The notes under the pieces are model-generated. The model saw only the letters and a program-made list of their open reading frames with translations, ran no database searches and was not told where the DNA came from. A stretch of 38,572 nt of DNA from a virus, in IMG/VR virus record IMGVR_UViG_3300028835_001054; one strand, 5' to 3'. Below, piece by piece: positions 2,745-38,572 of this stretch (position 1 is its first letter; each line of letters opens with the position of its first letter). A program made the position numbers and the translations under genes.

Positions 2745-2809
2745 TTTTGCTTCTCTCAAGGCTTCGAAGAGAGCAAATTTTGCTTCTCTCAAAGCATCGA
2801 AGAGAGCAA
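2745..2809 (+). repeat. Two abutting copies of the 33-nt palindromic element (2745..2777, 2778..2809)
   Basis: TTTTGCTTCTCTCAAGGCTTCGAAGAGAGCAAA then TTTTGCTTCTCTCAAAGCATCGAAGAGAGCAA. Flanked by ..TGCGC on the left and TGCGCC on the right. Confidence 0.9.
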
Positions 2810-2940
2810 TGCGCCGGGACGGATCCCCCTGCTATATGAGAAAATTCGATTTCCAGCGTGACACTAAAGCCCTGATTCTGTTGGCTTTCCAATCCCAGAA
2901 TCCGGATCCTGTTCGCCTATATGAGACGCTTCTGGAGACG

Positions 2941-5160: not shown

Positions 5161-5193
5161 TTTTGCTCTCTTCGAAGCCTTGAGAGAAGCAAA
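5161..5193 (-). repeat. 33-nt palindromic element, single copy, 2 nt after the major capsid stop codon
   Basis: Plus strand TTTTGCTCTCTTCGAAGCCTTGAGAGAAGCAAA. The capsid TAG is at 5196..5198. Confidence 0.9.
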
Positions 5194-12508: not shown

Positions 12509-12925
12509 TCACTCCTCAGCATCTGGGAATGGATCATCACCCAGACCGACAAAATTGATAAATACGCGTCCTGGAGTATCGATCTCCAGCTTCATTTCCG
12601 GCTTCAATCCTGCGCGGTCCAGAATATCCCGCGCCGCTCCCAGCTTGACGGCCTCCGTTTTCGCGTTCAGCATCAGCTCCTGGAGAACTGGCAACGCATC
12701 CAGCGCAAGCGAGATCATCCGCGACCTGGACAGATCAAAGAGCTCCTGTTTCTTCTGTTCCCAATAGGCTTGCACTTTTGGGATTGTCAAAAGTCTGCTT
12801 GCCTTCGATGCTGCAATGTCATCATTCTTTGGCTTATAGCCAGCATCTTTGTATGCCTGCGTATACGTCTTACCTTCCAGGAGCCCATTGATGAAAAGTA
12901 TCTGACGGTTATTTATCTCCGGCAT
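12509..12925 (-). CDS. terS: Terminase small subunit (138 aa)
   Basis: MPEINNRQILFINGLLEGKTYTQAYKDAGYKPKNDDIAASKASRLLTIPKVQAYWEQ is the typical HTH N-terminus of Terminase_2-type small subunits. It lies upstream of terL. Confidence 0.75.
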   Translation of the reverse strand: MPEINNRQILFINGLLEGKTYTQAYKDAGYKPKNDDIAASKASRLLTIPKVQAYWEQKKQELFDLSRSRMISLALDALPVLQELMLNAKTEAVKLGAARDILDRAGLKPEMKLEIDTPGRVFINFVGLGDDPFPDAEE

Positions 12926-13298
12926 CCTTGATCGCCTCTCGAAATCGCTTAGCAAGTCGCATCCGTGATTTCTGAATCGTCATGGATCCTGCGGCATATC
13001 CGACGGTTTTGATCAGTTCTGCGATGGTATTGATCTGGAGAGTGGTATGGATTCGGGGATTGTCAGGATGGAGCTCGATTTCTGAAAGCGGTAGTATCTC
13101 CGTATCCAGTTTTGCAACGAGTTCCTCGGTGGATTGGGCTGGCCTGCTAAATTTCGGGTTTGCCATTTTAACACCAGGATTGTTAAAACGGCTGGAAGGC
13201 AAAACAAACCCCGGTCGGGAAATACTTTGCCCTCCAACCGGGGTTTGTTTCAGCAAAGGATTCGGCAAGATAGGCTCAAGTATCTTGCTGTATCCCAT
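12909..13298 (-). CDS. ParB N-terminal-like domain protein (start uncertain: 13298 or ATG 13166)
   Basis: ILPLSEIELHPDNPRIHT..INTIAELIKTVGY resembles the ParB/Srx-fold box (HP.NPR). First gene downstream of the predicted promoter at 13325..13353. Confidence 0.4.
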   Translation of the reverse strand: MGYSKILEPILPNPLLKQTPVGGQSISRPGFVLPSSRFNNPGVKMANPKFSRPAQSTEELVAKLDTEILPLSEIELHPDNPRIHTTLQINTIAELIKTVGYAAGSMTIQKSRMRLAKRFREAIKDAGDK

Positions 13299-13324
13299 CG
13301 AAAAGATGTTACCATATCACTCCA

Positions 13325-13353
13325 ATTATACCAAGATACTGTGAATTGATCAA
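13325..13353 (-). promoter_or_regulatory. Sigma70-type promoter with extended -10 (candidate packaging/late operon promoter)
   Basis: Minus strand TTGATC-17 nt-TATAAT with TGG immediately upstream (TGGTATAAT). The same 9-mer occurs at the two switch promoters. Confidence 0.45.
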
Positions 13354-13612
13354 GGAATCTTTTTAACTTCTGTTAGTAATAGCCCCATAATGAAACTTAT
13401 GCAGACCAATCACGCCCGTAGATGCGCTATTTACGCGGGTTGGAATTTTGTGACATGGTTATGCCATGAAATGGTAGGATTTCTCTTTTTCCTGGCATGA
13501 TTCTATACAAATGGTTTGTATTTCTTGAACGATTCGGCATGAGGTAGGCAAGATGGCCTGCCGGTGTGATTACTTCTTGTTTAAGTTCTGGGACTTGATT
13601 CGATCTAATTTT

Positions 13613-14232: not shown

Positions 14233-14433
14233 TCAAAATACCTTTTTAGGCTTTCCCAACTGCTCCGCTTGATGTATTTCAACGTCAATCAGACGGCAGT
14301 GGATGTTATTATGTCCTGCCCGGCCGCAATATGAGCAAACCTTCGAAGCGCGCGCTATCTTGTCAAATTTCGCTTCCGTGATCTTTGCGCTTTTGCTTCT
14401 CTCAATACATCGAAGAGAGCAAAAGTCATTTCT
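14233..14433 (-). CDS. Startless 66-codon open frame in phase with the TGA of 14434..15114; contains a CCHC zinc knuckle (possible readthrough extension or decayed C-terminus)
   Basis: Codon-by-codon reading gives TGA(14434-36) RNDFCSLRCIERSKSAKITEAKFDKIARASKVCSYCGRAGHNNIHCRLIDVEIHQAEQLGKPKKVF TGA(14233-35). The frame contains no ATG/GTG/TTG. CX2CX4HX4C lies at 14296..14337. Confidence 0.4.
   Translation of the reverse strand, partial: RNDFCSLRCIERSKSAKITEAKFDKIARASKVCSYCGRAGHNNIHCRLIDVEIHQAEQLGKPKKVF
14391..14424 (+). repeat. 33/34-nt palindromic element, 9 nt downstream of the TGA at 14434
   Basis: TTTTGCTTCTCTCAATACATCGAAGAGAGCAAAA. Confidence 0.9.
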
Positions 14434-15114
14434 TCATAGCCCTTTCTGTTTCAGAAAGTTGTCTAGATCCCGGCGATCTTTTGTTTCCCGCTCTTCATGT
14501 GTTAGTTTAGCATCTTTATCAGGCCATTCGCCAGAGATCCGCTCAATACCTTTTTCAGATTCTATCAATTTGGAACAAGCCGCTATGTTGAAAGGTAGGC
14601 AATCAATTTCCCTGAGCGTAAACTTGACAATCGGAATGTCTATGATAATTCGATACCGAAATTCCCCGATGTATTGATATTTCTTCACCAGGTTAAGATT
14701 TGCTCTCTTCGATGCTTTGAAGGTAGTACCTGAAGTAAAATCTGAGATCTTGCGGATGCCATCGGAGATCCGCCTCAGGATCCAGTTATTGGCGCCCACG
14801 TTATAATCCAGAACCACTTCTTTTTCCCCCTGGAGCATATTGAACATGCCCCATCTTCGGCGCTTGCGATGTTTTTCCAGGACAGGACAATTAGCATAAG
14901 CGCAGTATCCGCCGGCATAGTTGACCCCGGCTGGTACGCCATCCGGCAGGAGCTTTCCCTTTCCAAATCTTCCCCTGGACGCAATGACTTTGATGTTATT
15001 TCTGAGAAAAAGTCTGCCAATTCCGCGCAGCTTTACCTCGAAAACTTTACCCCGGAGTTCGCTTACTAGCGGAGTGTTTCCCATCTTCCATTGATAATTC
15101 CATTTATTGCTCAT
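14434..15114 (-). CDS. Hypothetical protein (226 aa) carrying an in-frame long-variant repeat insertion
   Basis: ATG 15114 is preceded by AAGGGAG. No family recognised. Residues DFTSGTTFKASKRAN are encoded by the repeat at 14698..14742. Confidence 0.45.
   Translation of the reverse strand: MSNKWNYQWKMGNTPLVSELRGKVFEVKLRGIGRLFLRNNIKVIASRGRFGKGKLLPDGVPAGVNYAGGYCAYANCPVLEKHRKRRRWGMFNMLQGEKEVVLDYNVGANNWILRRISDGIRKISDFTSGTTFKASKRANLNLVKKYQYIGEFRYRIIIDIPIVKFTLREIDCLPFNIAACSKLIESEKGIERISGEWPDKDAKLTHEERETKDRRDLDNFLKQKGL
14698..14741 (-). repeat. Long (44-nt) variant of the palindromic element, inside ORF 14434..15114
   Basis: Plus strand ATTTGCTCTCTTCGATGCTTTGAAGGTAGTACCTGAAGTAAAAT. Same architecture as 25372..25416 and 35875..35918. 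Confidence 0.9.
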
Positions 15115-15616: not shown

Positions 15617-15737
15617 TTATGCTTCTCTCAAGGCTTCGAAGAGAGCAAAATTAGCTTCTCTTGAGGCTTCGAAGAGAGCGAAATTTTCTTCTCTTGCCCC
15701 TGGCTTTTGCTTCTCTCTGAGCATCGAAGAGAGCAAA
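15617..15737 (+). repeat. Cluster of three full copies plus one partial copy of the palindromic element
   Basis: Copies at 15617..15650, 15651..15683 and 15705..15737; partial TTTTCTTCTCTTGCCCCTGGC at 15684..15704. Confidence 0.9.
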
Positions 15738-15935
15738 TCCGGCTGTCTCTGGAACCTTCCAGAGTCCAAAATCACTATACATCTGGCATCTGGTGATATA
15801 CAGTACTATAGCGACCTCTTCTGGATCAATCGCTGTGCATTGGTAAGCTGCTGAATCTTCACTACAGTTCGCCATCAGGTCGTTTGTAAGCTGGCGAATT
15901 TCTTTTGCTGTTGGGCTAGTCTGTTTGCTTCCCAT
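15651..15935 (-). CDS. Hypothetical protein (94 aa) whose last ~30 codons and stop codon are supplied by the repeat cluster
   Basis: ATG 15935 is preceded by GAGGAG. The C-terminus FALFDAQREAKARGKRRKFRSLRSLKRS* is a translation of the repeats in reverse orientation. Confidence 0.45.
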   Translation of the reverse strand: MGSKQTSPTAKEIRQLTNDLMANCSEDSAAYQCTAIDPEEVAIVLYITRCQMYSDFGLWKVPETAGFALFDAQREAKARGKRRKFRSLRSLKRS

Positions 15936-15945
15936 TTTACTCTCC

Positions 15946-16377
15946 TCACAGGTGATCGATTTGCGCTGCAGCTTCTTTGATCTCTGGGTTGCCAATAGCC
16001 ATCAAACGAAGTATGCCATAGATCGTCGTTCCTGAAATCTTGAGCCTGATACATTCTTTCGTGATCGCCTCAAGCCCGCGCTGTATCTCTTTCGCTTTGA
16101 GCCTCGCTATTTCCTCTGTAAGATTGCGGATGCCCGCCTCGAATGTTTCTGCCTCCTCTTTGTTTTTTTCTGCCAGGAGCATAGGCTTCCGCTTTTCTTC
16201 CTCCCTTGCCGACTTTTTGAGATCTTTCGCAACCTGGACTTTCCTCAGCAATTCCTTTTCCTTTTCAGGATCCAGATCCAGATCGCTGAGGATATTCTTG
16301 GTCTGCTTTACTGACCAATCCTCTCTGATGCAATCCTCAATTAGTTCGTTCACATATGTTTCAGTAAAACCGCCCAT
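15946..16377 (-). CDS. Hypothetical coiled-coil protein (143 aa)
   Basis: Charged Lys/Glu-rich central helix. No family recognised. Confidence 0.4.
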   Translation of the reverse strand: MGGFTETYVNELIEDCIREDWSVKQTKNILSDLDLDPEKEKELLRKVQVAKDLKKSAREEEKRKPMLLAEKNKEEAETFEAGIRNLTEEIARLKAKEIQRGLEAITKECIRLKISGTTIYGILRLMAIGNPEIKEAAAQIDHL

Positions 16378-16693: not shown

Positions 16694-17470
16694 TTATTCA
16701 GGGTAGTCCTCTGTTATATACCCGTTTCTAATCCTGGACACTAGCGCACCGCCGGGATTCCTAAACGTGATTCCTTTCTCAAAGTCCTTTTTGATCTGTG
16801 CTATCTGCCGGAGAAGATACCGCGTTTCATATTTTGCCGCCAGTTCAGATCGCGCCGGCTCCTTTACGTGATGATAATCTAATTCCCTGCGCGCCTTCTC
16901 GAAATCAGCTTCCGATTTTTCCTCAGTTACCAAAAAACCATTACCACCATTTTTAGGACTTTTCTCAACCCCCTCTCCGGTAGTAACTATATTAATATTG
17001 GTATGGGTATGGTCCTCTCCTCTCTTCTCTTCTGATCTTAGGATGGTGCCCTCTACTGTGCCCTCTACTCGTCCTCTACTGTGCCCTCTACTGCTCCCTT
17101 TTTGTTCCAGTAAGCTATTTCCCCCAGTCCAGACGCCCTTATACAGCAACAGTGATTTATAGTTAATTTCGTACTTTGCGCAGGTGTTTTTACCAAAGTT
17201 TCCGGAGATAACTTTCAATAATGGCTTACCATCTATTCTGAACTTGCACAAATTAGCGCGCCTCCCGCGAACGGATTTCGGGGTATTTCCACCACCCGCC
17301 GCCATCGCCTGAAGGTTATTCAGATCAAATGGCATCTTAAATCCGCGCCTGTTGTGTTCCAGGATGATACCGATCAGAAACGTGAACGACTCTTCGCTCA
17401 GTTTGCATACCAGGCCATATTTGTCAATACCCAGCATTACATCAATCAACGTAAAAGGCCGATCAACCAT
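16694..17470 (-). CDS. Hypothetical protein (258 aa), possibly DNA-binding/replication-associated
   Basis: Sits in the replication/recombination module. Contains a 12-nt tandem repeat. The function is not recognised with confidence. Confidence 0.3.
   Translation of the reverse strand: MVDRPFTLIDVMLGIDKYGLVCKLSEESFTFLIGIILEHNRRGFKMPFDLNNLQAMAAGGGNTPKSVRGRRANLCKFRIDGKPLLKVISGNFGKNTCAKYEINYKSLLLYKGVWTGGNSLLEQKGSSRGHSRGRVEGTVEGTILRSEEKRGEDHTHTNINIVTTGEGVEKSPKNGGNGFLVTEEKSEADFEKARRELDYHHVKEPARSELAAKYETRYLLRQIAQIKKDFEKGITFRNPGGALVSRIRNGYITEDYPE
17046..17092. repeat. Tandem 12-nt repeat, four units (one unit is 11 nt)
   Basis: GTGCCCTCTACT GTGCCCTCTACT CGTCCTCTACT GTGCCCTCTACT. Encodes SRGHSRGRVEGTVEGT on the minus strand. 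Confidence 0.85.
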
Positions 17471-18105
17471 TAATCATCGCCCTTCCTGCCAGATACAGGC
17501 CATCTACCTTTATACGGTGTATCAATTATTTCCATCTCAAGCTGGTATTCCCTTAATATTTCATTCCCCCAAGCATCCCATCCATTTGTCTGCTCGCGAG
17601 CAAATAGTTCAATACGTGGTAGATCGCCAAAGAGATTCACAATGAGTCTGCGAAAGAGATCGGGCTTTTGAGAGTGTGCCAAGCGTTTATGAAATTGCAC
17701 ATTCATTATATCCTTTCTCAATCTCTGGGCTCCTTTTCCTCTTCGGCCTAGTAACAAAATCTCAGGATTGGAACGTGTATAGCGTCCCATACCCATAGCA
17801 GGGATACTCGCCTGTGTCAGTTTGATCCATGTGAAGGCAACTGTTTTATAATCAAAACCCCATGACTCAACAACTGATATACCCTCTTTCAGTTGCGGAT
17901 AAGTGACCCATAGAAAAAGAATAGAATCATCGGCCGCGACATCTTTGACAGGCAAATTACATATGGAATCCGTCCTCATGCAGGGATAATGCGCTTCCGC
18001 GCCTCCTCCATGACTATAGCTTTTGTCAGCATAGAACCACGGCGGATCAGCATAGATTATTTTATAATGTTTTAAAGGAAGTTCTAAAAGGTCATTATAA
18101 ACCAT
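17470..18105 (-). CDS. MT-A70-family N6-adenine DNA methyltransferase (211 aa)
   Basis: IIYADPPWFY (DPPW catalytic motif). ATG 18105 is preceded by AGGAGG 6 nt upstream. Confidence 0.8.
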   Translation of the reverse strand: MVYNDLLELPLKHYKIIYADPPWFYADKSYSHGGGAEAHYPCMRTDSICNLPVKDVAADDSILFLWVTYPQLKEGISVVESWGFDYKTVAFTWIKLTQASIPAMGMGRYTRSNPEILLLGRRGKGAQRLRKDIMNVQFHKRLAHSQKPDLFRRLIVNLFGDLPRIELFAREQTNGWDAWGNEILREYQLEMEIIDTPYKGRWPVSGRKGDD

Positions 18106-18274
18106 ACTTAGCCTCCTGGATCCGCTCCGACATAACGCCTCCATCATTAAAGCGGAGCCGAAGCCCCGCCCTGACAAAGTCTTTCTGCTCCGTCGCACAA
18201 GTTGGCTCCTGAGTGGAAAGTGTCCAGGACGGTGAGGTTATCACCATCCTGGATGGAGTAAAGCTCAGGAGCGC

Positions 18275-20245
18275 TTATTTCGGCGCATCGTTGAGGGCTT
18301 CTTGCTCCTCTTTCTGATTCTGGGTAGGTGCCAGATGTTTTGACAATTCCTGTTCGAGAGTTCTGAGTAGAAGTTCTGCCTCTGGCAGCTTCATCATGCC
18401 CATTCGCTTTGGCTTATATCCGATCACATCTTTAACCTTCACCCTGAAAGCAACCGATCCCAGCGTTTTATACTGCGGAAGGGACGTAGCGAGCGCGCGC
18501 AATCTCTTGAATTGCTCTTTGGTGATCTCCTGTTCTTCATCCGGTGGCTCCGTCTGTCCAGGAAGCACAGGATTGGGATTGTGATCGACTATATCCAGTT
18601 GCGGATTCTCTTCATCAGGTTTGGCATCCGGATCGAAATCTGGCAACCGTCGGATCCGGACAATAGCCTCTGCGTAATCATCCAGAGTCCATGAATCTGC
18701 TGGGGCTTTGTGTAGATTTTCGAGGATCCACGCGTCCCGCTTCTCTACGGTTCCGAATTTCTTGACGCATACCGTAAGTAGATCCTTTGTGAGGTTCCGC
18801 TCCTCTTTTTCCGCTGATTCGATTACAGCGTCAATCTCCGCACGGAGTTCTTGCGCTGTTTCCTCTGTGCCAGTTTTTACCGCATCTTTCACAGCGTCCT
18901 CAACAGGCGTGCCATCTTTCGTGACTGGCTCTGGAAATTCTGCCTGGATCAAGAGGATCGCTTTCTGGAATTGTTCCGCCATCCATTTCGAGAGATCAGT
19001 ATCATCAGGGAAGTGTTCCAGAATCCATACGTCGCGCTCCTGGATTCCAGCGAAACAGGTTGCACCTAATTCCATGAAAGTTGATCGGAGTGCCTCGAGC
19101 TCAGGATCGGAATCTTCGTCCTTTCCGGTATCCACAACATCGCCCAGGACTTTCAGAGCTTTTTGATAATCTTCCACTGTCCAGGCTCCGATAAGCTTTT
19201 CTGCAACCGTTTTGCAGAAAGCATCCCTGTCCTGGATTCCAGCGAATACCGTCGCTCCCAATTCAGCGAAAGCGGCTTTCAGTTGCTCGAGCTCAAGATC
19301 GAATCTTCCGCTCTTCCCTTTCGTTTCCTCTTCTGGCTCCTGTTTCGGTTTGTGCGCCTCTGCTCTCTTCGAAGCCTTGAGAGAAGCAAACGGCATTTTA
19401 TGGATGGCGCTGAAAGCCTTTGCATAATGCGGCGCTTTCCATTTTGTGACAGAAGCTTCGCCCGTGTTCTGGAGTTGCCAGGAGTGCCGATCATCTTCAT
19501 TTGCGAAGAGGTCCTTGATCATCCCAAAATATGATTCTCTGAGCGCTGTTAGATCCTCTCCGCTATCTACCGTCACCGATGCCACTTCAGGAATCTCCTG
19601 GGCAGGCTCCGATGCTTCCAGCGGCGGCTCATTATATGCCTGTAAAGCAGGATTCTCGAATCCGCCGCCGAGTTCCTCAGCGATATATGGTAGATGCTGA
19701 GTTTCCAGTCCCGCGTATCGGAGCGCTCGTGTTACAGCGCATTTTCTGAACATATCGCGCAACATTGTCTCCCAAAACCTGTTCGGCTTATTATCGCTTT
19801 TGCGCCGTTTGATACAATCCTCCAACCACGTTTCCCAGACGTGAGGTCTTTCTCTGTCCTTGATCGTCAAAGTGATTTTGCACACTTTGGGATCGTCAGG
19901 ATCGTCGAATTCATACTCAATATGCTCCAGCCCATTAGCGTATGCCACATCCAGATACTTTCTATAGCCCACTATCGTCTGACCAGGTTCGCCTGCGATC
20001 TTCATAAAGTATACCTCGCCCTTTAGCGGATCCAAATTCAGGGCGCGGCATTTTCCCATGAACCAGAAAATATCATCATCTGTGCCGCCTTTGCATATAT
20101 ATTTTCTCACAAGCTCCTTGTTGATCTGGATTGTCTCATAGCTGTATTGGAGCGGCGCTATCTCCGCGCCGGTTCCCTCTGTTGCTGGCTGTCTGGTTTC
20201 CGCATCCATCTTATCAAGTTCTGCCATGTCATTTTTCTGATTCAT
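18275..20245 (-). CDS. RecT/Redbeta-like single-strand annealing protein with a long repeat-containing C-terminal extension
   Basis: The N-terminal third (CRALNLDPLKGEVYFMKIAG..GQTIVGYRKYLDVAYANG...MFRKCAVTRALRYAG) fits the RecT/Bet pattern. The C-terminal ~400 aa hold four ~50-aa repeats. The start is ambiguous (ATG 20245 or 20227). Confidence 0.65.
   Translation of the reverse strand: MNQKNDMAELDKMDAETRQPATEGTGAEIAPLQYSYETIQINKELVRKYICKGGTDDDIFWFMGKCRALNLDPLKGEVYFMKIAGEPGQTIVGYRKYLDVAYANGLEHIEYEFDDPDDPKVCKITLTIKDRERPHVWETWLEDCIKRRKSDNKPNRFWETMLRDMFRKCAVTRALRYAGLETQHLPYIAEELGGGFENPALQAYNEPPLEASEPAQEIPEVASVTVDSGEDLTALRESYFGMIKDLFANEDDRHSWQLQNTGEASVTKWKAPHYAKAFSAIHKMPFASLKASKRAEAHKPKQEPEEETKGKSGRFDLELEQLKAAFAELGATVFAGIQDRDAFCKTVAEKLIGAWTVEDYQKALKVLGDVVDTGKDEDSDPELEALRSTFMELGATCFAGIQERDVWILEHFPDDTDLSKWMAEQFQKAILLIQAEFPEPVTKDGTPVEDAVKDAVKTGTEETAQELRAEIDAVIESAEKEERNLTKDLLTVCVKKFGTVEKRDAWILENLHKAPADSWTLDDYAEAIVRIRRLPDFDPDAKPDEENPQLDIVDHNPNPVLPGQTEPPDEEQEITKEQFKRLRALATSLPQYKTLGSVAFRVKVKDVIGYKPKRMGMMKLPEAELLLRTLEQELSKHLAPTQNQKEEQEALNDAPK
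19361..19390 (-). repeat. Palindromic element inserted in frame in the RecT-like gene
   Basis: Plus strand TGCTCTCTTCGAAGCCTTGAGAGAAGCAAA, read as FASLKASKRA between protein repeats 1 and 2. Confidence 0.9.
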
Positions 20246-20465
20246 TTTCTTTCTCACTTTCTTGAAGGAGCACCTCAGCGTTTTCAACGGCGTTGATGAA
20301 TTCATCCCGCTTTTGTTTCGCCATAGCGATCCAGTGTCTTGTTTCGGTCCTGAGAAAATGGAGATCTTCCGAATCCGTTCGCTGCCAATCCTGGCTGGTG
20401 AGCGCTTTCAGATAATCGATAACGCATCTCAGCGCGTGGACTTTTTGATCGTGTATGCTTCCCAT
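20229..20465 (-). CDS. Hypothetical small protein (78 aa)
   Basis: ATG 20465 is preceded by AGGGAG. Lies between the nuclease and annealase genes. Confidence 0.4.
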   Translation of the reverse strand: MGSIHDQKVHALRCVIDYLKALTSQDWQRTDSEDLHFLRTETRHWIAMAKQKRDEFINAVENAEVLLQESEKENESEK

Positions 20466-21576: not shown

Positions 21577-21951
21577 TCATTCATCTCTCTTACGAAGTTG
21601 TGCTTTAAGAGACAATACCTCATGCTGTAGTTCTTGGCTCTGCTTGGTGAGCGCAAGTATAATCGTGTCTTTTCTTTCCCGGAGATCATTCAATTCTTCC
21701 CATATTTCCCTGGCCTGATCATCTGCCAGAACGGATACGCGCACTTTCAAGCACTTAGCGATCTTCTTGGCAAGATAGAGGCTGACGCTGGTTTTAGCCC
21801 GAAGGATTTTATATAAAGTATCCCTGTGTATCGCCTTCCCTGTCTCCTGGCTCAAGCGAACCATGTCAGGGACTTTCAGATCCTGGAGTTTCATCTCTCT
21901 CTTAACGTTTTCCGCGAATTCTACTTTGACATCCTCTCTCTCTTGATTCAT
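21577..21951 (-). CDS. Cro/XRE-like HTH regulator with C-terminal coiled coil (124 aa)
   Basis: First gene of the leftward operon, divergent from the repressor gene. PDMVRLSQETGKAIHRDTLYKILRAKTSVSLYLAKKIAKCLKV is an XRE-type HTH. RBS GGGAGG. Confidence 0.6.
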   Translation of the reverse strand: MNQEREDVKVEFAENVKREMKLQDLKVPDMVRLSQETGKAIHRDTLYKILRAKTSVSLYLAKKIAKCLKVRVSVLADDQAREIWEELNDLRERKDTIILALTKQSQELQHEVLSLKAQLRKRDE

Positions 21952-21995
21952 TTCTATATCCTCCCTTGATAGGGTTTATAACTCTATATCAGTTA

Positions 21996-22025
21996 ATTAT
22001 ACCATAGAGCGACACGATATGTCAA
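21996..22025 (-). promoter_or_regulatory. Leftward early promoter (near-consensus sigma70, extended -10)
   Basis: Minus strand TTGACA-18 nt-TATAAT with TGG upstream of the -10 (TGGTATAAT). About 45 nt upstream of the Cro-like start. Confidence 0.6.
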
Positions 22026-22085
22026 CCTAAAATAGGCTTTGATTATATCTAAAGCCTCTTTAACTAACAAAAGTGTCGATTTTAG

Positions 22086-22114
22086 TATACAAATATCTTG
22101 AAATCTGGTATAAT
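22086..22114 (+). promoter_or_regulatory. Rightward promoter for the repressor operon (extended -10)
   Basis: TATACA-17 nt-TATAAT preceded by TGG (TGGTATAAT). Overlapped by the inverted repeat CTGGTA-12 nt-TACCAG (22105..22128). Confidence 0.45.
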
Positions 22115-22205
22115 GAGATAATTACCAGTTATACGATCATTTATTTTTTTAAGCCGCCGACCAAGTTTGGCGGAGCAAATGCCAGAACAGATCAGGAGGT
22201 ATCGA

Positions 22206-23432: not shown

Positions 23433-23460
23433 ATCTGTTCGTCAAATCGGCTCAAAATCA

Positions 23461-23548
23461 TCCGCACTATTGAGTACAGTAATATCCGCACTATCGGGTT
23501 AAATAGTCCGCACTATTGAGTACAGTGATCCGCACTATTGAGTTAAGT
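23461..23548 (+). repeat. Four direct iteron-like repeats upstream of the rep gene
   Basis: TCCGCACTATTGAGTACAGT (23461), TCCGCACTATCGGGTTAAAT (23485), TCCGCACTATTGAGTACAGT (23507), TCCGCACTATTGAGTTAAGT (23529). Spacing 24/22/22 bp. Confidence 0.8.
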
Positions 23549-23571
23549 TTTTGGAGGCAAAGTCAATAATC

Positions 23572-24729
23572 ATGCGCTTTTATAGACCCAGAGACTTCTT
23601 TATTACTCTTTTAAAACGATTTAAAAGGGCGCCTGTGCAATTAGAGCTTGATCCGGACTCTCCCGAATCTTCTTCTCTCAAGGCTTCGAAGAGAGCAAAA
23701 TTTGCTTCTCTCAAGGCATCGAAGAGAGCAAAATCCACCCCACCGAAAGAAGTCAAGGAAGCAAAAGAGAAAAAGCCAAAGCCCTCCCCGGAGATAGTGA
23801 GAAGCGAACTCAACCTGGAAAAGAACGCGGTCTTTGCAGTCTCCACTTACAGGGAAAGGTCCAGGGAGGTCATCAGAACCTATGAGACGGATTCGGGATC
23901 CATGGAGCGCAGAGTCGTTGTAGGCAGAGCGACGGACGGCTCCGAAGTCGGTATCCTCACCACGACTCATTTCAAGCTGTATCTTGCCCTCCTGGAACTC
24001 TGGGAGAAAGCAGGGAAGCCAGTTAGCCAGCCTGTCCATTTCACCGTCCTCAAGTTGATAAAACGTCTCAAATTGGTGGATTCAGGGAATAATTATAAGA
24101 ACATGCTGAAATCAATGGAAGGACTGAGAAGCATACCGATACGATTCATTGATAGCTTCCAGACCAAAGATGGAGAATTCCGGTCAACAGGGCATTTGAG
24201 CGTCCTATCGTACCTGGATATATACGAGAGAAAGAGAAGGACGAAAGGCGGAGATAAGGTCTATGGATACGGGGAATTCCAGTTTGACAGGCACATTCTT
24301 ATGTCGCTTGTGGAAAATTTCACGCACCCTCTTCGATTAGATGTGATCACCAGTTTCAGAAAACATCGGGAACTAGCTATACTCCTCTACACATATCTTG
24401 ATCGCCAATTAGCCTTCAGAAGAAAGTTTGAGATTACGCTGAAAAAGCTCTACACGCAACTTGATCTGTCTCAGGCATACATTACCTATCCATCACAGAG
24501 GAAATCGAAAATAGAGCCCGTTCTGGAGCAACTGATAGGCAAAGAACTATCTACAGGGAAGTTATCATACTGCGAAACCGAGAAGACGAAGGACGGGAGG
24601 GATTATAAATTGGTTTGCAGAAAGACCGGCGTTACGCAAATCCCCGCGCCGGAGCCTGTCAAATTAGATTGGAGCCTGGCCCTGGACAAACTGTTATCTC
24701 AGATGGAGCAAATGAAAGACAACCGATGA
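23572..24729 (+). CDS. Replication initiator, RepA-like winged-helix protein (385 aa)
   Basis: Iterons lie immediately upstream. The central region (GILTTTHFKLYLALLELWEKAG...FTVLKLIKRLKL..GNNYKNMLKSMEGLRSIPIRF...HRELAILLYTYLDRQL) resembles plasmid/phage replication initiator protein A-type sequences. ATG 23572 follows GGAGG; the track TTG 23551 is less likely. Confidence 0.55.
   Translation: MRFYRPRDFFITLLKRFKRAPVQLELDPDSPESSSLKASKRAKFASLKASKRAKSTPPKEVKEAKEKKPKPSPEIVRSELNLEKNAVFAVSTYRERSREVIRTYETDSGSMERRVVVGRATDGSEVGILTTTHFKLYLALLELWEKAGKPVSQPVHFTVLKLIKRLKLVDSGNNYKNMLKSMEGLRSIPIRFIDSFQTKDGEFRSTGHLSVLSYLDIYERKRRTKGGDKVYGYGEFQFDRHILMSLVENFTHPLRLDVITSFRKHRELAILLYTYLDRQLAFRRKFEITLKKLYTQLDLSQAYITYPSQRKSKIEPVLEQLIGKELSTGKLSYCETEKTKDGRDYKLVCRKTGVTQIPAPEPVKLDWSLALDKLLSQMEQMKDNR
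23668..23733 (+). repeat. Two abutting copies of the palindromic element in frame inside rep
   Basis: TCTTCTTCTCTCAAGGCTTCGAAGAGAGCAAAA plus TTTGCTTCTCTCAAGGCATCGAAGAGAGCAAAA, read as SSSLKASKRAK FASLKASKRAK. Unit boundaries coincide with codon boundaries. Confidence 0.9.
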
Positions 24730-25150: not shown

Positions 25151-25317
25151 AGTCAAGGATTTTCAGGTGTCAGAATTCTGCACGGAAGCTGCTTTCCGTG
25201 GCCACGGGATCCCTTCCAGGAAGTGGAATCCGCAAGCCAGTCATAGTGCGGGATCTTGATTTTACCTCAAAAGTGTCAGGATTCCGCACATAATATTCGA
25301 AAGGATTTCAGGAGGGA

Positions 25318-25370
25318 AGGCGGCTCCCGGTCTGTAAGATGAGGAGAGTTTTTTGTTTCAGGAGCCGCCT
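25318..25370 (+). terminator. GC-rich hairpin with T-run in the convergent intergenic region
   Basis: AGGCGGCTCC-33 nt-GGAGCCGCCT followed by GATTTTG. The loop is unusually large for an intrinsic terminator. Confidence 0.35.
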
Positions 25371-25371
25371 G

Positions 25372-25416
25372 ATTTTGCTCTCTTCGATGCCTTGAAGGTA
25401 GTACCTGAAGCAAAAT
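25372..25416 (-). repeat. Long (45-nt) variant of the palindromic element, 17 nt after the last late-operon stop codon
   Basis: Plus strand ATTTTGCTCTCTTCGATGCCTTGAAGGTAGTACCTGAAGCAAAAT, followed by a truncated arm TTTGCTCTGG (25415..25424). Confidence 0.9.
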
Positions 25417-32531: not shown

Positions 32532-32809
32532 TTTCTTCCCTTTGCTTTGAGCTTTGCAAGCATCTGTTCCGAAGTCACGCGCTTGACAATCCGCGTTCTA
32601 TTACTTCGAGATGGTCTTTCCTTTGATCTTCCCCTTGATCTTTCTATGATGTCCAGTTTCTTTTTCATGAAACCGTAGAGATATGGCAATTCGTATTTCA
32701 GGACTGCCTCGCGTGTATGACCTGAGTCCAGAAGGCAAAAACTTATCTCTTCCAGCGTGTCTAACTGGTCTCTGAGGCTATATCCTGATTCTCCGCCTGT
32801 GTAGGGTTT
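32528..32809 (-). CDS. -1 frame extension of the tail assembly chaperone (GT-type product, about 92 extra codons)
   Basis: The -1 frame is closed by TGA at 32810..32812, then open from AAA CCC (32809) to TGA at 32528..32530, which overlaps the tape-measure ATG (ATGA). All triplets were checked by eye and contain no stop. Confidence 0.65.
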   Translation of the reverse strand, partial: KPYTGGESGYSLRDQLDTLEEISFCLLDSGHTREAVLKYELPYLYGFMKKKLDIIERSRGRSKERPSRSNRTRIVKRVTSEQMLAKLKAKGRK

Positions 32810-33219
32810 TCAGAGTCTACCTCATTTGCTCTCTTCGATGCCTCGAGAGAAGCAGAAGGCGCATCTTCGCCAGCCTTTGCGTCCGCAACAAATTCATCTT
32901 TCTCAAAATCCGCCTCTATCTCTTCCCGGGTATAGCTAGTGAAGAAATAGATTACCTCTTTGAGAATCTCGTTAGTGGCCGCCTTATCAGTAAACCCTAT
33001 GCGCGCCCCGACTTCTTCTATGCTTATCTCCGCAGCGTCCCGGAGCGCTCTGACCCAGGCAAGCACCCTGAAAACTTCACGATCTAATGGTCCATCTTCG
33101 TGGTATAAGCACTTTGGTATGGGTCGGGTGATCCGTTTAGGCAGGTTCTCGGCAGCCAGGATAACCTCGTTAAGTGTAGCCTTATCACCCTGTAATTTCA
33201 GTAAATCAATGAATTCCAT
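32761..33219 (-). CDS. Tail assembly chaperone (G-type, 152 aa, acidic)
   Basis: Immediately upstream of the tape measure, with an overlapping -1 ORF. Acidic C-terminus. Confidence 0.65.
   Translation of the reverse strand: MEFIDLLKLQGDKATLNEVILAAENLPKRITRPIPKCLYHEDGPLDREVFRVLAWVRALRDAAEISIEEVGARIGFTDKAATNEILKEVIYFFTSYTREEIEADFEKDEFVADAKAGEDAPSASLEASKRANEVDSENPTQAENQDIASETS
32803..32809 (-). promoter_or_regulatory. Candidate -1 slippery heptamer A_AAC_CCT
   Basis: The zero frame reads GAA AAC CCT, which fits the X_XXY_YYZ pattern. It lies 14 codons before the zero-frame stop. Confidence 0.55.
32824..32856 (-). repeat. Palindromic element in frame in the chaperone gene, 15 nt upstream of the slippery site
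   Basis: Plus strand ATTTGCTCTCTTCGATGCCTCGAGAGAAGCAGA, read as SASLEASKRAN (11 codons exactly). Confidence 0.9.
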
Positions 33220-33611: not shown

Positions 33612-35854
33612 GGGTTCTCCACGGAATATTTATAATCATCCAGATACATGATAGGAACGTCATGGACGACATAATCCAAATTCGAGAAATTGATCGGCCC
33701 AAGCAGGATTTTCGATTCCTCACAATACAACTGGTTTGTATATCCATCGCTATCAGTAAACTGTAGTATCGTCTGAAGAACCGGCGGCTCGAAATTATCA
33801 TCAAAATGATATTCCCGGAAATCTACCTTATGACATGAGAAGTTATCGAACCACGCTGCAACACCATCGCCATAGATTTTGATCGTGAGCGTTCCGCTGG
33901 CTGCCGTGAATCTGTGAGTCACCTTCACCCAATCGGTCGTCTCTGAGCCATTATCGAGCGTTACAGATGCCGCTCCTGACAGAACGACCATAGCCTTGTC
34001 AGCGGTTCCAGCTTTAACATGGCCGCAAAATGTGTACTCCTCCCCACTGGTAATCGTTACCGCCTGGCTCACGTATTTCGTTGCAGGATCGTCGGAATTG
34101 ACCTCATAGCAGAACTCTCCAGACTGTTCCGCCACGTCCTCATCATCTACAGTCGGCACGCCAGTAGTAGCCCACTCGGAGTCTGCAATATCCGACTCGA
34201 ACCCGCCCGCGTCGATATAGTTTTTCGATATATGGACGTTATCCCAGTATCCCATCTCCCCATCTGTCGTCGATCCAGATCCCAGGTCGATAGTCGTGGC
34301 AGTATCGCCAGCCTCGAAATCGAACTCTATCTCATACCAGGTCCCGCCGGTAGTGGCTCCGGCTTGCGTTACGGTTATGCCCTTATCCGCCGCAAGGTCC
34401 ACATCCACAAGCTGGGAAGCTCCGTTAGGTGTAACTGGCGCTCTAAACCAGCCGTGGAAATGATACTCTACATTAGTGATAGTTGTCACCGTATGCCGAG
34501 CAGAGGCTTGAGTCCCATCGGTATTTTTGACTCTGAGAGATCTGGCTCCATACTTTGTATACTGAGTATCTTTCCTGACCTCACAGAAAGCATCCGGCCT
34601 CTTCCAGGGGCCAATCCCCGCGTTTTCCATTCCCCAATCGAAGTTCATCAGATTGGAGCTCAGGATAGCTATCTGAGATCTGCTATGCACTCCATAATTC
34701 GCCGTTTCGCCCCCAACGAATGTTAAAACCAAACCGTTCGCGGCGGTAGCAAGATCTTCAATATCAGTCGCCGCGGCAGCATCTCTAAATGGCCACCAGG
34801 CATCAGGTAATTCCGCCTCTGTTCGTGGAGTAGCGGCAGCCGTTAGAGCCTGAGCCGCTGTCAGGACCACGTCATCATAAATCGCCGCCTCAGCAATATG
34901 CCCATCGAAAGGCCTGCCACCATCGGATTCTGCCCCTATAGATATAACAAGAGCATTTGAGCAATCACCAATATTGGCCAGCGTTCCGGTTCTGGATGCT
35001 GTATCATCATAGCCCTCGACGTAGATTTTACAATCCGCTGCGCTATTCTCATTATAGGTCACTATTACAAAGCGCATCTCGTCTTTGAGGATCGGAGTAG
35101 CGCCTGTCAGGAGATAAGCATCGACTCCATCGTTTACAGCGAAGTTCAGAAAGCCGAAAACGTCAATGAAGAGCACCCACCCAGTGGTCGTGACGTAAGC
35201 CGTACCATCGTAATCAGAGCTTTTTGCGATCAAGACTTCTGTCGTACTTTCACGCCTGCGCTTGAACCTGATGAGGATTGAGTAATCCTGAGTATCCCCT
35301 ATATCGAACAGGACGTTATCAGCGCGGGTAAAATACTGCGGCGCCGAATAATCCAGATCCGCCATCACGCCGATTGTTTCCAGGCTGGGTATGTCGTTTC
35401 CAGCGCCATCGTCGATGTCTACTGACGTTCCTGGAGTAACAGGAGTTCCATCAATGTAGCCCGCATAGAAAGCGCCAGTCTCTTCGCTCAATATGATCTG
35501 CTCATTATCCTCAAAAGAATTGTGAGAGCCTGGTTCGGTCGTGAGTGTATCTTCCGTATCCCCGGTAGTTATAGCAGTGACCTCTTTCGTGCCTGCTTTC
35601 TCTACAGGATCGATACCGCAAAGGTCAGCGAGAGTGTCAACGTTGAAAGCCATCTCACCGATTGTCAAGCCCACATTCCGCCTCACAAGAGTAGCGCCTT
35701 TGAGAACGCGGCTCTGGCCTCTCCACTCAATAATAGTATCCTCACTGACAAACGAGGATCCGCCGCGCCAATCTGCCATCAGGAAATCAGCCGATGCAAT
35801 TACGTCTGATAGACCTGCATAGAATGTGCCATCAAATGCTATATGCTCATTCAT
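33608..35854 (-). CDS. Tail tube protein paralog with ~570-aa internal LamG plus CBM-like insertion (748 aa)
   Basis: N-terminus (..IIEWRGQSRVLKGATLV..IGEMAFN) and C-terminus (FEPPVLQ...LLGPINFSNLDYVVHDVPIMYL) are homologous to the termini of the 167-aa tube protein. The middle has a LamG pattern (ILIRFKRR..VIVTYNENSAADCKIYVEGY..FDGHIAEAAIYDDVVLT) and two CBM-like jelly rolls. Confidence 0.6.
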   Translation of the reverse strand: MNEHIAFDGTFYAGLSDVIASADFLMADWRGGSSFVSEDTIIEWRGQSRVLKGATLVRRNVGLTIGEMAFNVDTLADLCGIDPVEKAGTKEVTAITTGDTEDTLTTEPGSHNSFEDNEQIILSEETGAFYAGYIDGTPVTPGTSVDIDDGAGNDIPSLETIGVMADLDYSAPQYFTRADNVLFDIGDTQDYSILIRFKRRRESTTEVLIAKSSDYDGTAYVTTTGWVLFIDVFGFLNFAVNDGVDAYLLTGATPILKDEMRFVIVTYNENSAADCKIYVEGYDDTASRTGTLANIGDCSNALVISIGAESDGGRPFDGHIAEAAIYDDVVLTAAQALTAAATPRTEAELPDAWWPFRDAAAATDIEDLATAANGLVLTFVGGETANYGVHSRSQIAILSSNLMNFDWGMENAGIGPWKRPDAFCEVRKDTQYTKYGARSLRVKNTDGTQASARHTVTTITNVEYHFHGWFRAPVTPNGASQLVDVDLAADKGITVTQAGATTGGTWYEIEFDFEAGDTATTIDLGSGSTTDGEMGYWDNVHISKNYIDAGGFESDIADSEWATTGVPTVDDEDVAEQSGEFCYEVNSDDPATKYVSQAVTITSGEEYTFCGHVKAGTADKAMVVLSGAASVTLDNGSETTDWVKVTHRFTAASGTLTIKIYGDGVAAWFDNFSCHKVDFREYHFDDNFEPPVLQTILQFTDSDGYTNQLYCEESKILLGPINFSNLDYVVHDVPIMYLDDYKYSVENP

Positions 35855-35874
35855 AATATCACGCCCTTTCCCAG

Positions 35875-35918
35875 ATTTGCTTCAGGTACTACCTTCAAGG
35901 CATCGAAGAGAGCAAAAT
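35875..35918 (+). repeat. Long (44-nt) variant of the palindromic element, 7 nt after the tail tube stop codon
   Basis: ATTTGCTTCAGGTACTACCTTCAAGGCATCGAAGAGAGCAAAAT. Confidence 0.9.
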
Positions 35919-35925
35919 TGCTATC

Positions 35926-36429
35926 TTAGTTCTCAAGTAAGAACGAGGCCAGCGAACCTGTAGCGCTGTAGAGCTTCAGTATGACATCCTGGACTATCTT
36001 ATCTATATTCGTGAAATTGATCGGCACCCCCAGAGCGATCCCATCGCCAGCGAATGCCTGGAATATCTGCCCACCGAGCATGCATTGGACGAGCCACTGC
36101 ATCTCAGGCGGCACGGTATCCTTATCGAATGTGTAGCTGGTTGCTGGTTCCGTTCCCACCGATTTCAGAGCGTCACTCCCATTCTTTGTTGCTCCATAGA
36201 GCGTCTCAAGAAGTCCAGGCTTGAAAGCGACCTCAGAGATCGTAAATATAATATCGGTCTTTACGACTTCTACATCCTTCAGAACCCGGCTCTGGCCCCT
36301 CCATTCGACTGTCTCAGTGGCGATCTCCGCCACCCATCCGCCCCTGAACTCCGCGACCTCGTTTTCCGCCGCATTCGTGACAGCGGTTGCGTGTGCGTAT
36401 AATGCCCCTGCTAATCCAACTTCTGACAT
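35926..36429 (-). CDS. Major tail (tube) protein (167 aa)
   Basis: ATG 36429 lies 7 nt after AAGGAG. The size and position (after neck genes, before chaperone/TMP) fit a siphovirus tube protein. The call is positional plus paralogy. Confidence 0.55.
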   Translation of the reverse strand: MSEVGLAGALYAHATAVTNAAENEVAEFRGGWVAEIATETVEWRGQSRVLKDVEVVKTDIIFTISEVAFKPGLLETLYGATKNGSDALKSVGTEPATSYTFDKDTVPPEMQWLVQCMLGGQIFQAFAGDGIALGVPINFTNIDKIVQDVILKLYSATGSLASFLLEN

Positions 36430-36440
36430 GATCAAGCTCC

Positions 36441-37814: not shown

Positions 37815-38572
37815 TCAGACCACCATGGCGCGAACTTTCTTCCGCACGTAAGGACGCAGAAGCATATCGGCCTCTCTTAAGCCTGTGAGCGGCTTCTGCT
37901 TTGTCGTATAAGAGATCCCCGCGACTGTTTCTGTACCTTCGCTGTAGGTCGTATAGAGCGTATCATTATTTCTATATCTGGCACAGATGATACATGCTTC
38001 CTTGATCATCTCCGGCGGATCGTTTACCGCGCCGTTTGTGTTATCCACATCCGCTGTCGCTTCAGAAGTCCCGCCGGTGATCTCCTCATTATTCTGAAAA
38101 TCCGTGGAACTCCTGCCTGAAATCTTCAGATATAAGGGATTGACATCATTCACTTTCGCAGTGGCTCCGCTCGTCCCACCGGTGATGATCTCTCCTACCG
38201 CGAACGTGCCTGATATATTATCCATATCAAGCCGCTCAGTCCAGCCGTAGCTTCCCACGATATGGATATTCCTCATCCCGCGCGGAAACAGGCAAGATCT
38301 CTCCACACGTTTCAGCAAATAGCGCAGCTCATGCTCGGTTGTGATATTAGTCGTATCAAGAAATACGGAGTGCTTATCATGCGTGTAGTAGGTTGTGGAA
38401 AGGCTCACTCCAGAGAGCGAAATAGCGGAAACGCTGAGGATATTGGGAATGAGATTGAGATTCAGACGGCTCGCTCCATTTCCATCGCGGTCCACAGCAA
38501 AAGCTTTCGGATAAAAGAAATCCTTTGTCAGTTTATGGATCCGCTCCTCAACGCGATCTATTATCGCCTGCT
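37815..38572 (-). CDS. Head-tail connector/adaptor protein, C-terminal part (5' end runs off the window; true start is the ATG at position 250 across the junction)
   Basis: The frame stays open upstream of the track start (GTG 38495) to the window edge, and is continuous with 250..1 through the 144-nt overlap. Confidence 0.6.
   Translation of the reverse strand, partial: QAIIDRVEERIHKLTKDFFYPKAFAVDRDGNGASRLNLNLIPNILSVSAISLSGVSLSTTYYTHDKHSVFLDTTNITTEHELRYLLKRVERSCLFPRGMRNIHIVGSYGWTERLDMDNISGTFAVGEIITGGTSGATAKVNDVNPLYLKISGRSSTDFQNNEEITGGTSEATADVDNTNGAVNDPPEMIKEACIICARYRNNDTLYTTYSEGTETVAGISYTTKQKPLTGLREADMLLRPYVRKKVRAMVV
38429..38572. repeat. Terminal direct repeat, right copy (identical to 1..144)
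   Basis: Same 144-nt string as the window start. Confidence 0.92.

Follow-up and report, generated by a model that had tools for sequence, protein, structure and literature searches.

The replication initiator gene (rep) of the phage genome IMGVR_UViG_3300028835_001054 (38,572 nt, hereafter the window) contains a directly adjoining pair of 33-nt repeats that belongs to a family of near-identical, imperfectly palindromic units scattered over the window. The copies are insertions relative to homologous sequences, are dispersed and preserve the reading frame. Our preferred reading, which we hold to be rather probable, is that the rep pair represents the insertion of a recently expanded, frame-preserving, selfish mini-palindromic mobile element. 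This reading draws on the discrete, undecayed and near-identical nature of the copies, their clean insertion, their absence from the nearest relative and the occurrence of one copy in an otherwise unrelated contig, as well as on their conserved terminal arms and free loop, their frame-preserving length and their survival only in linkers, tails and spacers. The rep pair is an ordinary member of the family, and it is in the family that the interest lies.

The repeat in rep is an in-frame insertion

The sequence reads TCTTCTTCTCTCAAGGCTTCGAAGAGAGCAAAA at 23668-23700 and TTTGCTTCTCTCAAGGCATCGAAGAGAGCAAAA at 23701-23733, and Tandem Repeats Finder reported the pair as 23672-23734 (period 33, 1.9 copies, 96% matches, score 119). 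The two copies differ at 3 of 33 positions, and the second departs from the computed family consensus only at position 18. The rep open reading frame (ORF) spans 23551-24729 on the plus strand, with public gene calls placing the start at the ATG at 23572; as the first unit begins 96 nt further on, both unit boundaries are codon boundaries, and the pair encodes Rep residues 33-54, SSSLKASKRAK-FASLKASKRAK, 8 of which are basic. A preliminary description of this DNA had reported two abutting copies with these boundaries and this peptide, as found here, and had placed them in an N-terminal low-complexity region, which agrees with the predicted structure. In an AlphaFold2 model of Rep (71 homologues; mean predicted local distance difference test score, pLDDT, of 81), the N-terminal 76 residues, including the 22 inserted ones, form a low-confidence linker with pLDDT below about 60, in which the inserted peptide is modelled as helical at low confidence.

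The 22 residues are absent from all 11 of the closest Rep homologues (50-86% identity), which show a 22-residue gap at exactly this place in a linker that varies among homologues, and the motif occurs in none of the 70 homologues in a 71-sequence alignment. At the DNA level, the pair is missing from five relatives. In two of these, L001 and L002 (Logan assembly contigs of SRR31155647 and SRR31155649, with Rep 80-86% identical), the alignment shows a single clean 66-nt gap with flanks that are 84-88% identical, while the gene and its four iterons are kept; the relatives read CCC-CAA^TCC where the window reads CCC-GAA[66 nt]TCC. The preliminary description had suggested looking for such a 22-residue indel, which is thus borne out, and had held that a duplication universal among Rep homologues would speak against it, which is not what the alignment contains. 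An assembly or adaptor artefact was ruled out as the source of the copies, since they differ by point substitutions and keep their frames, and JGI, ENA and Logan data all contain the same proteins.

The unit belongs to a dispersed family

The window contains 14 copies at 10 loci on both strands, eleven of 33 nt and three of 42 nt, as identified by less stringent matching together with a profile search (Table 1). A 29-nt core gave 10 matches at up to three mismatches, compared with none in 100 dinucleotide-preserving shuffles, and an nhmmer profile scored the 14 copies at 21-45 bits with nothing else in the window above 5 bits. The eleven 33-nt copies differ from one another at 1-8 of 33 positions, and no decayed copies were found in the window. 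The 33-nt unit (11 codons) reads TTTGCTTCTCTC-AAGGCWTC-GAAGAGAGCAAAA, while the 42-nt derivative (14 codons) reads TTTGCTTC-AGGTACTACCTT-CAAGGCATCGAAGAGAGCAAAA and keeps both termini. Each length is divisible by three, and five of the six reading frames through the unit are open.

The two arms form an imperfect inverted repeat, TTTGCT(T)CTCTC and GAGAGCAAA, in which TTTGCT-(T)-CTCT pairs with AGAG-AGCAAA around a bulge to give a 6-bp and a 4-bp stem. Across the 12 short copies (eleven in the window and one in the metagenomic contig L004, described below), no substitution occurs at positions 5-11 or 19-29 and every internal difference lies in the loop (positions 12-18), while TCGAAGAGAGC is invariant in all 15 copies (14 in the window plus L004). 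By a hand calculation, the chance that six variable sites would all fall within 7 of 25 positions is 7/177100, although this figure, like the frame-use and mosaic-edge statistics given below, comes from small numbers of copies that are related by descent and not independent. A single unit is predicted to fold into a hairpin of -5.5 kcal/mol as DNA (z -1.9) and of -9.5 (z -1.95) and -10.3 kcal/mol as RNA in the two orientations, the tandem pair has no significant fold (z -0.85 and -1.2), and the 83-nt region around the rep pair folds no better than shuffled sequence. The term palindrome used in the preliminary description is therefore apt in so far as the arms pair around a bulge, but the pairing is loose and the hairpin weak (z about -2).

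At least four of the 10 loci are coding (Rep, the RecT linker, a 152-aa protein and a 226-aa ORF), and in all four the copy lies in a variable or low-confidence segment, in sense orientation and in a single phase, encoding ..ASL(K/E)ASKRA... The only homologue of the 226-aa ORF (P0126, on contig L030) lacks exactly 14 residues, or 42 nt, at a site between two codons, and about 15 residues around the 32824 copy are missing from three homologues of the 152-aa protein. For the RecT copy an indel cannot be placed cleanly, because its linker is divergent and the end of nucleotide homology with L001 lies only 56 nt away. At the 2746 locus, the window has 73 nt where the relative L018 has 10; this pair is probably intergenic, about 34 nt upstream of an ATG near 2712, and it is uncertain whether ORFs 2521-2892 and 15651-15995 are real genes. 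Both the 2746 and the 23668 pair consist of a GGCTTC-loop copy followed by a GCATC-loop copy, a weak hint that the dimer may have been copied as one unit. The intergenic copies at 5161, 14392, 35876 and 25373 follow stop codons at the distances given in Table 1, in both orientations relative to transcription, and the cluster at 15618-15738, at the 3' end of ORF 15651-15995, adjoins the ribosome-binding site of the next gene. The counterpart of the 25373 position in L001 holds an extra 68-aa gene, that of the 35876 site in L018 an unrelated repeat-rich spacer, and around the 14392 locus L030 has only the 226-aa gene in common with the window.

Table 1 Element copies, the rep gene and iteron arrays (window coordinates unless a contig is named)
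Feature	Position	Strand	Description
Tandem pair, T-type then A-type	2746..2811	+	Antisense to local transcription
Single copy, intergenic	5161..5193	-	2 nt past stop of virion structural (capsid-like) gene 5196-6368
Single copy, intergenic	14392..14424	+	9 nt past stop of ORF 14434-15114; antisense to transcription
42-nt variant	14698..14739	-	In frame in ORF 14434-15114 (226 aa), FTSGTTFKASKRAN, residues 126-139
Cluster	15618..15738	+	Copies 15618-15650 and 15651-15683; 22-nt left-arm fragment 15684-15705; copy 15706-15738
Single copy	19358..19390	-	In frame, FASLKASKRAE, residues 306-316, linker after RecT domain of 676-aa RecT-fusion gene
rep copy 1	23668..23700	+	Loop GGCTTC (T-type); 5' end changed to TCTTC; encodes SSSLKASKRAK
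rep copy 2	23701..23733	+	Loop GGCATC (A-type); encodes FASLKASKRAK
42-nt variant	25373..25414	-	Between convergent genes, 28 nt after stop codon
Single copy	32824..32856	-	In frame, SASLEASKRAN, residues 122-132, acidic C-terminal tail of 152-aa ORF 32761-33219
42-nt variant, intergenic	35876..35917	+	8 nt past stop of 35926-36435
rep (P0001, 385 aa)	23572..24729	+	Iteron-type replication initiator gene; conserved core starts at IVRSELNLE
Four 22-bp iterons (ATCCGCACTATTGAGTACAGTA)	23460..23546		Directly upstream of rep; direct repeats
Iteron arrays in relatives	L001 9887-9977; L025 693-782; L029 432-542; L026 4056-4160

Distribution outside the window

The comparison with close relatives covers one relative, represented by two partial contigs (L001 and L018), and a few short contigs. 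No copy was found in the approximately 29 kb of L001 and L018, which are 75-87% identical to the window where they can be aligned. An exact-pattern scan of JGI metagenomes returned five matches, only one of which is a true copy: it carries one mismatch and is located between the stop codon of one gene and the ribosome-binding site of the following one on the 1.1-kb contig L004, which has nothing else in common with the window. The presence of a copy in an otherwise unrelated contig indicates that the element has moved between genetic contexts and, together with the ten loci in the window, makes it unlikely that all copies are products of plain local duplication that never changed locus.

Exact-pattern scans of IMG/VR gave nothing for two of three patterns and four chance matches for the loosest, and a scan of 185,579 GTDB species genomes gave nothing. 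BLAST searches with the rep pair produced only chance-level matches in GenBank phages and PLSDB (in PLSDB, two partial matches with E 0.07-0.2), and Rfam had no match to the whole window at the gathering threshold or to the rep pair at a relaxed threshold. A search of 5.8 billion proteins with a fourfold FASLKASKRAK query found nothing, the window's own Rep included; repeat or bias filters probably removed it, and an 11-residue match cannot reach E 10. The phage itself is also sparsely represented, with close relatives sought through its terminase and 745-aa tail protein reaching at best 57% amino acid identity in IMG/VR and none found in GTDB, and with no close relative of Rep in tblastn searches of GenBank phages and PLSDB plasmids.

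The copies as a probable mobile mini-palindrome

The pattern can be accounted for by a very short, imperfectly palindromic, non-coding mobile repeat that would have multiplied recently within this phage lineage, a pre-formed dimer perhaps having entered rep. Copies would survive in the few intergenic nucleotides of a compact genome, usually right past a stop codon, and also in frame within flexible or variable protein segments, because their lengths are multiples of three and five of the six frames are open. The invariant arms would be the part recognised by whatever copies the element, each copy would be neutral or nearly so for its gene, and the insertion in Rep is presumably tolerated rather than needed for replication. 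If so, the family would be a compact natural case of frame-neutral selfish DNA that creates protein linkers while spreading, with 14 copies tolerated in 38 kb, some of them in frame in a replication initiator, a RecT fusion and a tail-associated gene.

Several observations weigh against this reading. Searches with Pfam, PHROGs, NCBIfam and PDB sequences identified no transposase, integrase or RAYT-like gene in the window, where the only candidate mobilising enzymes are an HNH nuclease, RecT and a PD-(D/E)XK nuclease. The 10 loci show no consistent target-site duplication; the clean sites offer only AT and AATC (2-4 nt), which are ambiguous because the element itself ends in AAA(A/T). The hairpin is weak, and the 42-nt variant loses most of the stem. 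The element is nearly absent from public data (IMG/VR, GTDB, GenBank phages and PLSDB, with one JGI copy). Selection acting on individual copies, as binding sites or as a peptide, would be an equally good reason for the invariant arms and the single phase. Finally, of nine loci open to comparison, five fall within or border segments that the window and the relative do not have in common (25373, where L001 has its extra gene; 19358, 56 nt from a breakpoint; and three in the window-specific 13.8-16.2 kb), and this association with mosaic edges also fits a role in recombination.

A bolder form of the mobile-element reading, which we consider unlikely, is that the family represents a class of phage-borne ultra-short mobile DNA that would insert at codon boundaries without classical target duplication and be copied by RecT, the PD-(D/E)XK nuclease, the HNH nuclease or a host factor, writing new linkers into essential phage proteins and seeding mosaic junctions as it spreads. 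If true, this would add a previously undescribed mechanism to the evolution of phage proteins and genomes. On either form, the clean pairs of filled and empty sites would be useful for studying how mini-palindromes move, a question that is open for REP-like elements, Rickettsia palindromic elements and GC clusters alike.

Comparison with known short repeats

In behaviour, the element most resembles the Rickettsia palindromic elements (RPEs) and also the GC clusters of yeast mitochondria, but differs in its smaller size and in being carried by a phage. RPEs are described as palindromic selfish DNA of about 150 bp found in frame in many genes (Ogata et al. 2000, via PMC10969869). Both are dispersed palindromes that sit in frame in unrelated genes, contribute a conserved peptide at tolerated places, are missing from orthologues and have no known element-encoded enzyme, whereas RPEs measure about 100-150 bp and occupy a bacterial chromosome, and the present unit measures 33 or 42 nt, occupies a 38-kb phage and is unrelated in sequence. 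In-frame presence in unrelated ORFs combined with absence from orthologues was found for Rep and for the 226-aa and 152-aa ORFs, while the RecT linker copy is in frame with an ambiguous indel. Neither size nor sequence relates the unit to RPEs, as it has no match in Rfam or the other databases.

The GC clusters (for example GC42, and a 48-nt cluster inside var1) are mobile palindromes of 30-48 nt whose mechanism is unresolved (PMC4478555). They share with the present element hairpin-forming, near-identical copies, in the tens, in a small compact genome, presence/absence polymorphism, merged or derived forms, occasional copies in protein genes and target duplications that are of 2-3 nt or ambiguous (PMC4478555). 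However, they form GC-rich islands in AT-rich organelle DNA, mostly between genes (PMC4478555), whereas the present unit is of average composition and four of its 10 loci are coding.

REP and REPIN elements, which are mobilised by RAYT transposases, are likewise imperfect palindromes of 20-40 nt that lie just past stop codons, occur in pairs and lack target duplications (PMC3116915). Unlike these elements of bacterial chromosomes (PMC3116915), the pairs described here are direct and abutting rather than inverted and some copies lie inside genes; they are thus neither strictly extragenic nor arranged as inverted doublets, the window scans identified neither a RAYT gene nor any Y1 or HUH transposase, and the 5' ends of the copies and their immediate surroundings contain no GTAG or GTGG (the 5' GT[AG]G of REPs).

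In phage genomes, insertions are purged and transposable elements are accordingly scarce. One survey found viral miniature inverted-repeat transposable elements (vMITEs) in only 0.01% of viral sequences (PMC11602168), which makes a family of this density in a phage, with coding insertions in replication and recombination genes, unusual. Like vMITEs, the element is non-autonomous, carries short terminal inverted repeats and is borne by a virus (PMC11602168), and with 14 copies of 33 or 42 nt it combines inverted repeats, multiple copies and the lack of its own transposase gene. In contrast to vMITEs, it is far below the usual size of such elements and has no clear target-site duplication, none flanking the copies consistently at the 10 loci, and no parent insertion sequence or transposase gene with the same ends was found within the window. 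Identity as a classical MITE was ruled out by the size and the absence of a consistent target duplication.

A further comparison is with the PeSLs of T4-type phages, reportedly described by Arbiol et al. in 2010 as 'mobile regulatory cassettes'. These are said to be near-identical short stem-loop repeats dispersed in one phage genome near variable regions, as here, but also to contain an early promoter and to be strictly intergenic and in one orientation, whereas the present element has no promoter, occurs in both orientations and is in some cases intragenic.

Alternative roles for the copies

The copies might instead be dispersed double-stranded DNA binding sites for a phage or host protein (stoperators, a dispersed centromere or nucleoid-organising sites), the rep pair being two adjacent sites. 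This explanation is improbable without being negligible. Arms that are invariant in the 12 short copies, a core that is invariant in all 15 and a loop that is free to vary are what a binding site would produce; the copies are dense (14 per 38 kb), they use both strands, as expected of a nearly symmetric site, they stand two or three in tandem at three loci, and the lineage-specific genes at 13.8-19.4 kb could encode the binding protein. However, the close relative, with most genes in common at 75-87% identity, has no copy at orthologous sites, so that a binding-site system would have to be entirely new to the lineage. Moreover, no copy lies in the immunity region (21951-22167), the window scans identified no ParA/ParB or other candidate binding protein, coding insertions in rep, recT and a tail gene would be an odd way to build a regulon, and the unit also occurs in the unrelated contig L004.

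We think it doubtful that the copies are recombination linkers for the shuffling of modules by RecT and the PD-(D/E)XK nuclease, as proposed for PeSLs, with intragenic copies arising as by-products. The phage does encode both proteins, and RecT-type annealing can use homology of the order of 33-66 nt, the lengths available here. The mosaic-edge loci listed above, and the direct copies at 14392 and 15618 that flank a 1.2-kb block of three ORFs, would also fit. Yet the insertions in rep, in the 226-aa ORF and at 2746 are simple, with homologous flanks on both sides, and are not module junctions; the enrichment at edges is weak, at about five of nine loci against roughly 22% of the sequence (hand estimate); and the relatives that would be the exchange partners lack the element. 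A linker role would in any case explain the use of the copies and not their arrival.

A function as RNA hairpins, namely as mRNA 3'-end stabilisers, processing sites or attenuators comparable to REP elements or RNase III sites, appears quite unlikely. It would account for the position of the intergenic copies 1-28 nt past stop codons, for a hairpin in either orientation and for the different self-complementary repeat spacer of the relative at the 35885 site. The predicted folds are nevertheless barely better than shuffled sequence, and for the tandem pair not even that; the stem is lost in the 42-nt variant; the substituted bases in the arms of copy 15651 (T3 to A, A30 to G) are not complementary and do not compensate each other; no T-run follows the stem, Rfam has no match, and at least four loci lie inside coding sequence. 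Intrinsic terminators in particular were ruled out, as the T-run stands before the stem and the A-run after it whichever strand is read, and a consensus scan for terminators and promoters leaves the copies unflagged. A CRISPR repeat or solitary unit was likewise rejected: the copies abut without a spacer, and no Rfam CRISPR-DR family matched at the gathering or the relaxed threshold. Identity with a known RNA was rejected on the Rfam results as well.

Selection of the unit as a basic peptide, ASLKASKRAK, for example as a DNA- or partner-binding module copied between genes, is very improbable. The peptide has a basic character and a low-confidence helical prediction, and the agreement of all four coding loci in orientation and phase has a chance of about (1/5)^3 if five frames are equally likely (hand estimate), but at five or more loci the copy is intergenic or antisense and its translation does not give ASLKASKRAK, conservation is at the nucleotide level and includes third codon positions, the peptide sits in linkers and tails of functionally unrelated proteins, and none was found elsewhere in the 5.8-billion-protein search, which also missed the window's own Rep.

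The replication initiator and its iterons

The preliminary description had called the gene a replication initiator, and this is supported by structure. A Foldseek search of the Rep model against PDB matched RctB domains 2-3 (E 5e-12) and RepE54 (E 2.5e-4), and the model has the two-winged-helix fold of iteron-type initiators (RepE, pi and RctB). Pfam, PHROGs and NCBIfam gave no significant match to Rep itself (PF10134, RPA, at 15.6 bits against a cut-off of 27), while a sub-threshold match to Pfam RPA (replication initiator protein A) was present in 8 of 12 Rep homologues (best E 2e-4). Together with the iterons upstream, these matches identify the gene as an iteron-type initiator. Each of the five family members examined has four or five 22-bp iterons arrayed upstream of rep, and these co-vary with Rep, the iteron core changing along with the protein to CGCACTATTGAGT, CGTCATATCGAGT or CGCAGAATTGAGT. 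The array in the window is a probable origin or rep operator.

The preliminary description had further likened the pair to an origin embedded in an initiator gene, with a possible action in cis in unwinding or protein loading. The lambda origin lies in gene O, and in both cases repeated units stand in the N-terminal half of an initiator gene. The lambda repeats, however, bind the initiator itself and are a conserved feature of lambdoid O genes, whereas here initiator-type iterons stand upstream and the intragenic repeats are lineage-specific and genome-wide, being neither conserved among initiator genes nor iteron-like and specific to the locus. Although the pair consists of repeated, partly palindromic units within the coding sequence of a true initiator, some 120 nt downstream from the iteron array, and although contig L025 has an unrelated palindrome in the same Rep linker, an embedded origin is scarcely credible, because the pair is missing from all homologues, including the closest ones that keep the iterons, the unit recurs at nine other loci unrelated to replication and has no sequence similarity to the 22-bp iterons, the adjoining DNA is purine-rich and not AT-rich, and a conserved iteron array stands upstream. 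From their sequence and conservation, the upstream iterons are a much likelier origin or operator, although the rep pair may have a modulatory effect in cis on replication. For annotation, the case warns against taking repeats within an initiator gene for origin elements as a matter of course; here the conserved upstream iterons are the better candidate.

The palindrome in L025 (886-906, in the rep of P0010, a Rep of 66% identity) is a perfect one of 18 nt, CCGCGCTTCGAAGCGCGG, and encodes RASKRA. The 'ASKRA' of P0010 was ruled out as a remnant copy of the element, as its DNA (GCTTCGAAGCGCGCG) is a different palindrome that is homologous without indel to the P0003 sequence (L029).

Genome context and minor observations

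Positions 1-144 are identical to 38429-38572, and this 144-nt terminal repeat indicates that the assembled contig is circular and about 38,428 bp long. The window encodes a terminase, a portal protein, a protease, virion structural (capsid-like) and tape-measure proteins and a CI-like S24 repressor, as well as RecT, a PD-(D/E)XK nuclease, an MT-A70 methylase and an HNH nuclease; among the lineage-specific ORFs, searches with Pfam, PHROGs, NCBIfam and PDB sequences identified nothing beyond these last four. It is a tailed temperate phage, represented in full, that carries iterons and a Rep of the plasmid type. As domain scans of the window found no integrase, it may be a phage-plasmid.

The direct copies 14392-14424 and 15618-15650 bracket a 1.2-kb block of three ORFs (226, 102 and 50 aa) that, lying within the 13.8-16.2 kb without nucleotide homology to L001, looks like a cassette. 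Adjoining the 42-nt variant between convergent genes, 25316-25372 contains a 9-bp stem (GGCGGCTCC...GGAGCCGCC) with a T-rich loop, common to L001, which may be a bidirectional terminator. The spacer of L018 at about 7230-7300, orthologous to window positions 35855-35925, contains four GTGAATC and three complementary-looking GTCACCA repeats, such that different structured repeats hold the same spacer in the window phage and L018.

The RecT gene (18275-20305, minus strand) carries a C-terminal fusion of about 370 aa with three internal repeats that bear an ELGAT.FAGIQ.RD.W-like motif, and the RecT fusion of L001 (716 aa) has the same architecture. The window's MT-A70 methylase (17470-18198) lies in a lineage-specific segment. 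Region 12909-13542 is 86% identical to part of the 493-aa N6_N4 methyltransferase of L001 and looks like a truncated methylase, reduced to a 129-aa ORF whose N terminus has a weak ParB-like match. A 12-nt tandem repeat, GTGCCCTCTACT, is present in about four copies at 17046-17099, inside the 258-aa ORF 16694-17470. Two pairs of direct repeats (33657-33698 and 35984-36025, 79%; 35700-35728 and 36278-36306, 86%) lie between the 748-aa Laminin_G_3 gene and a 169-aa gene and may be paralogous segments.

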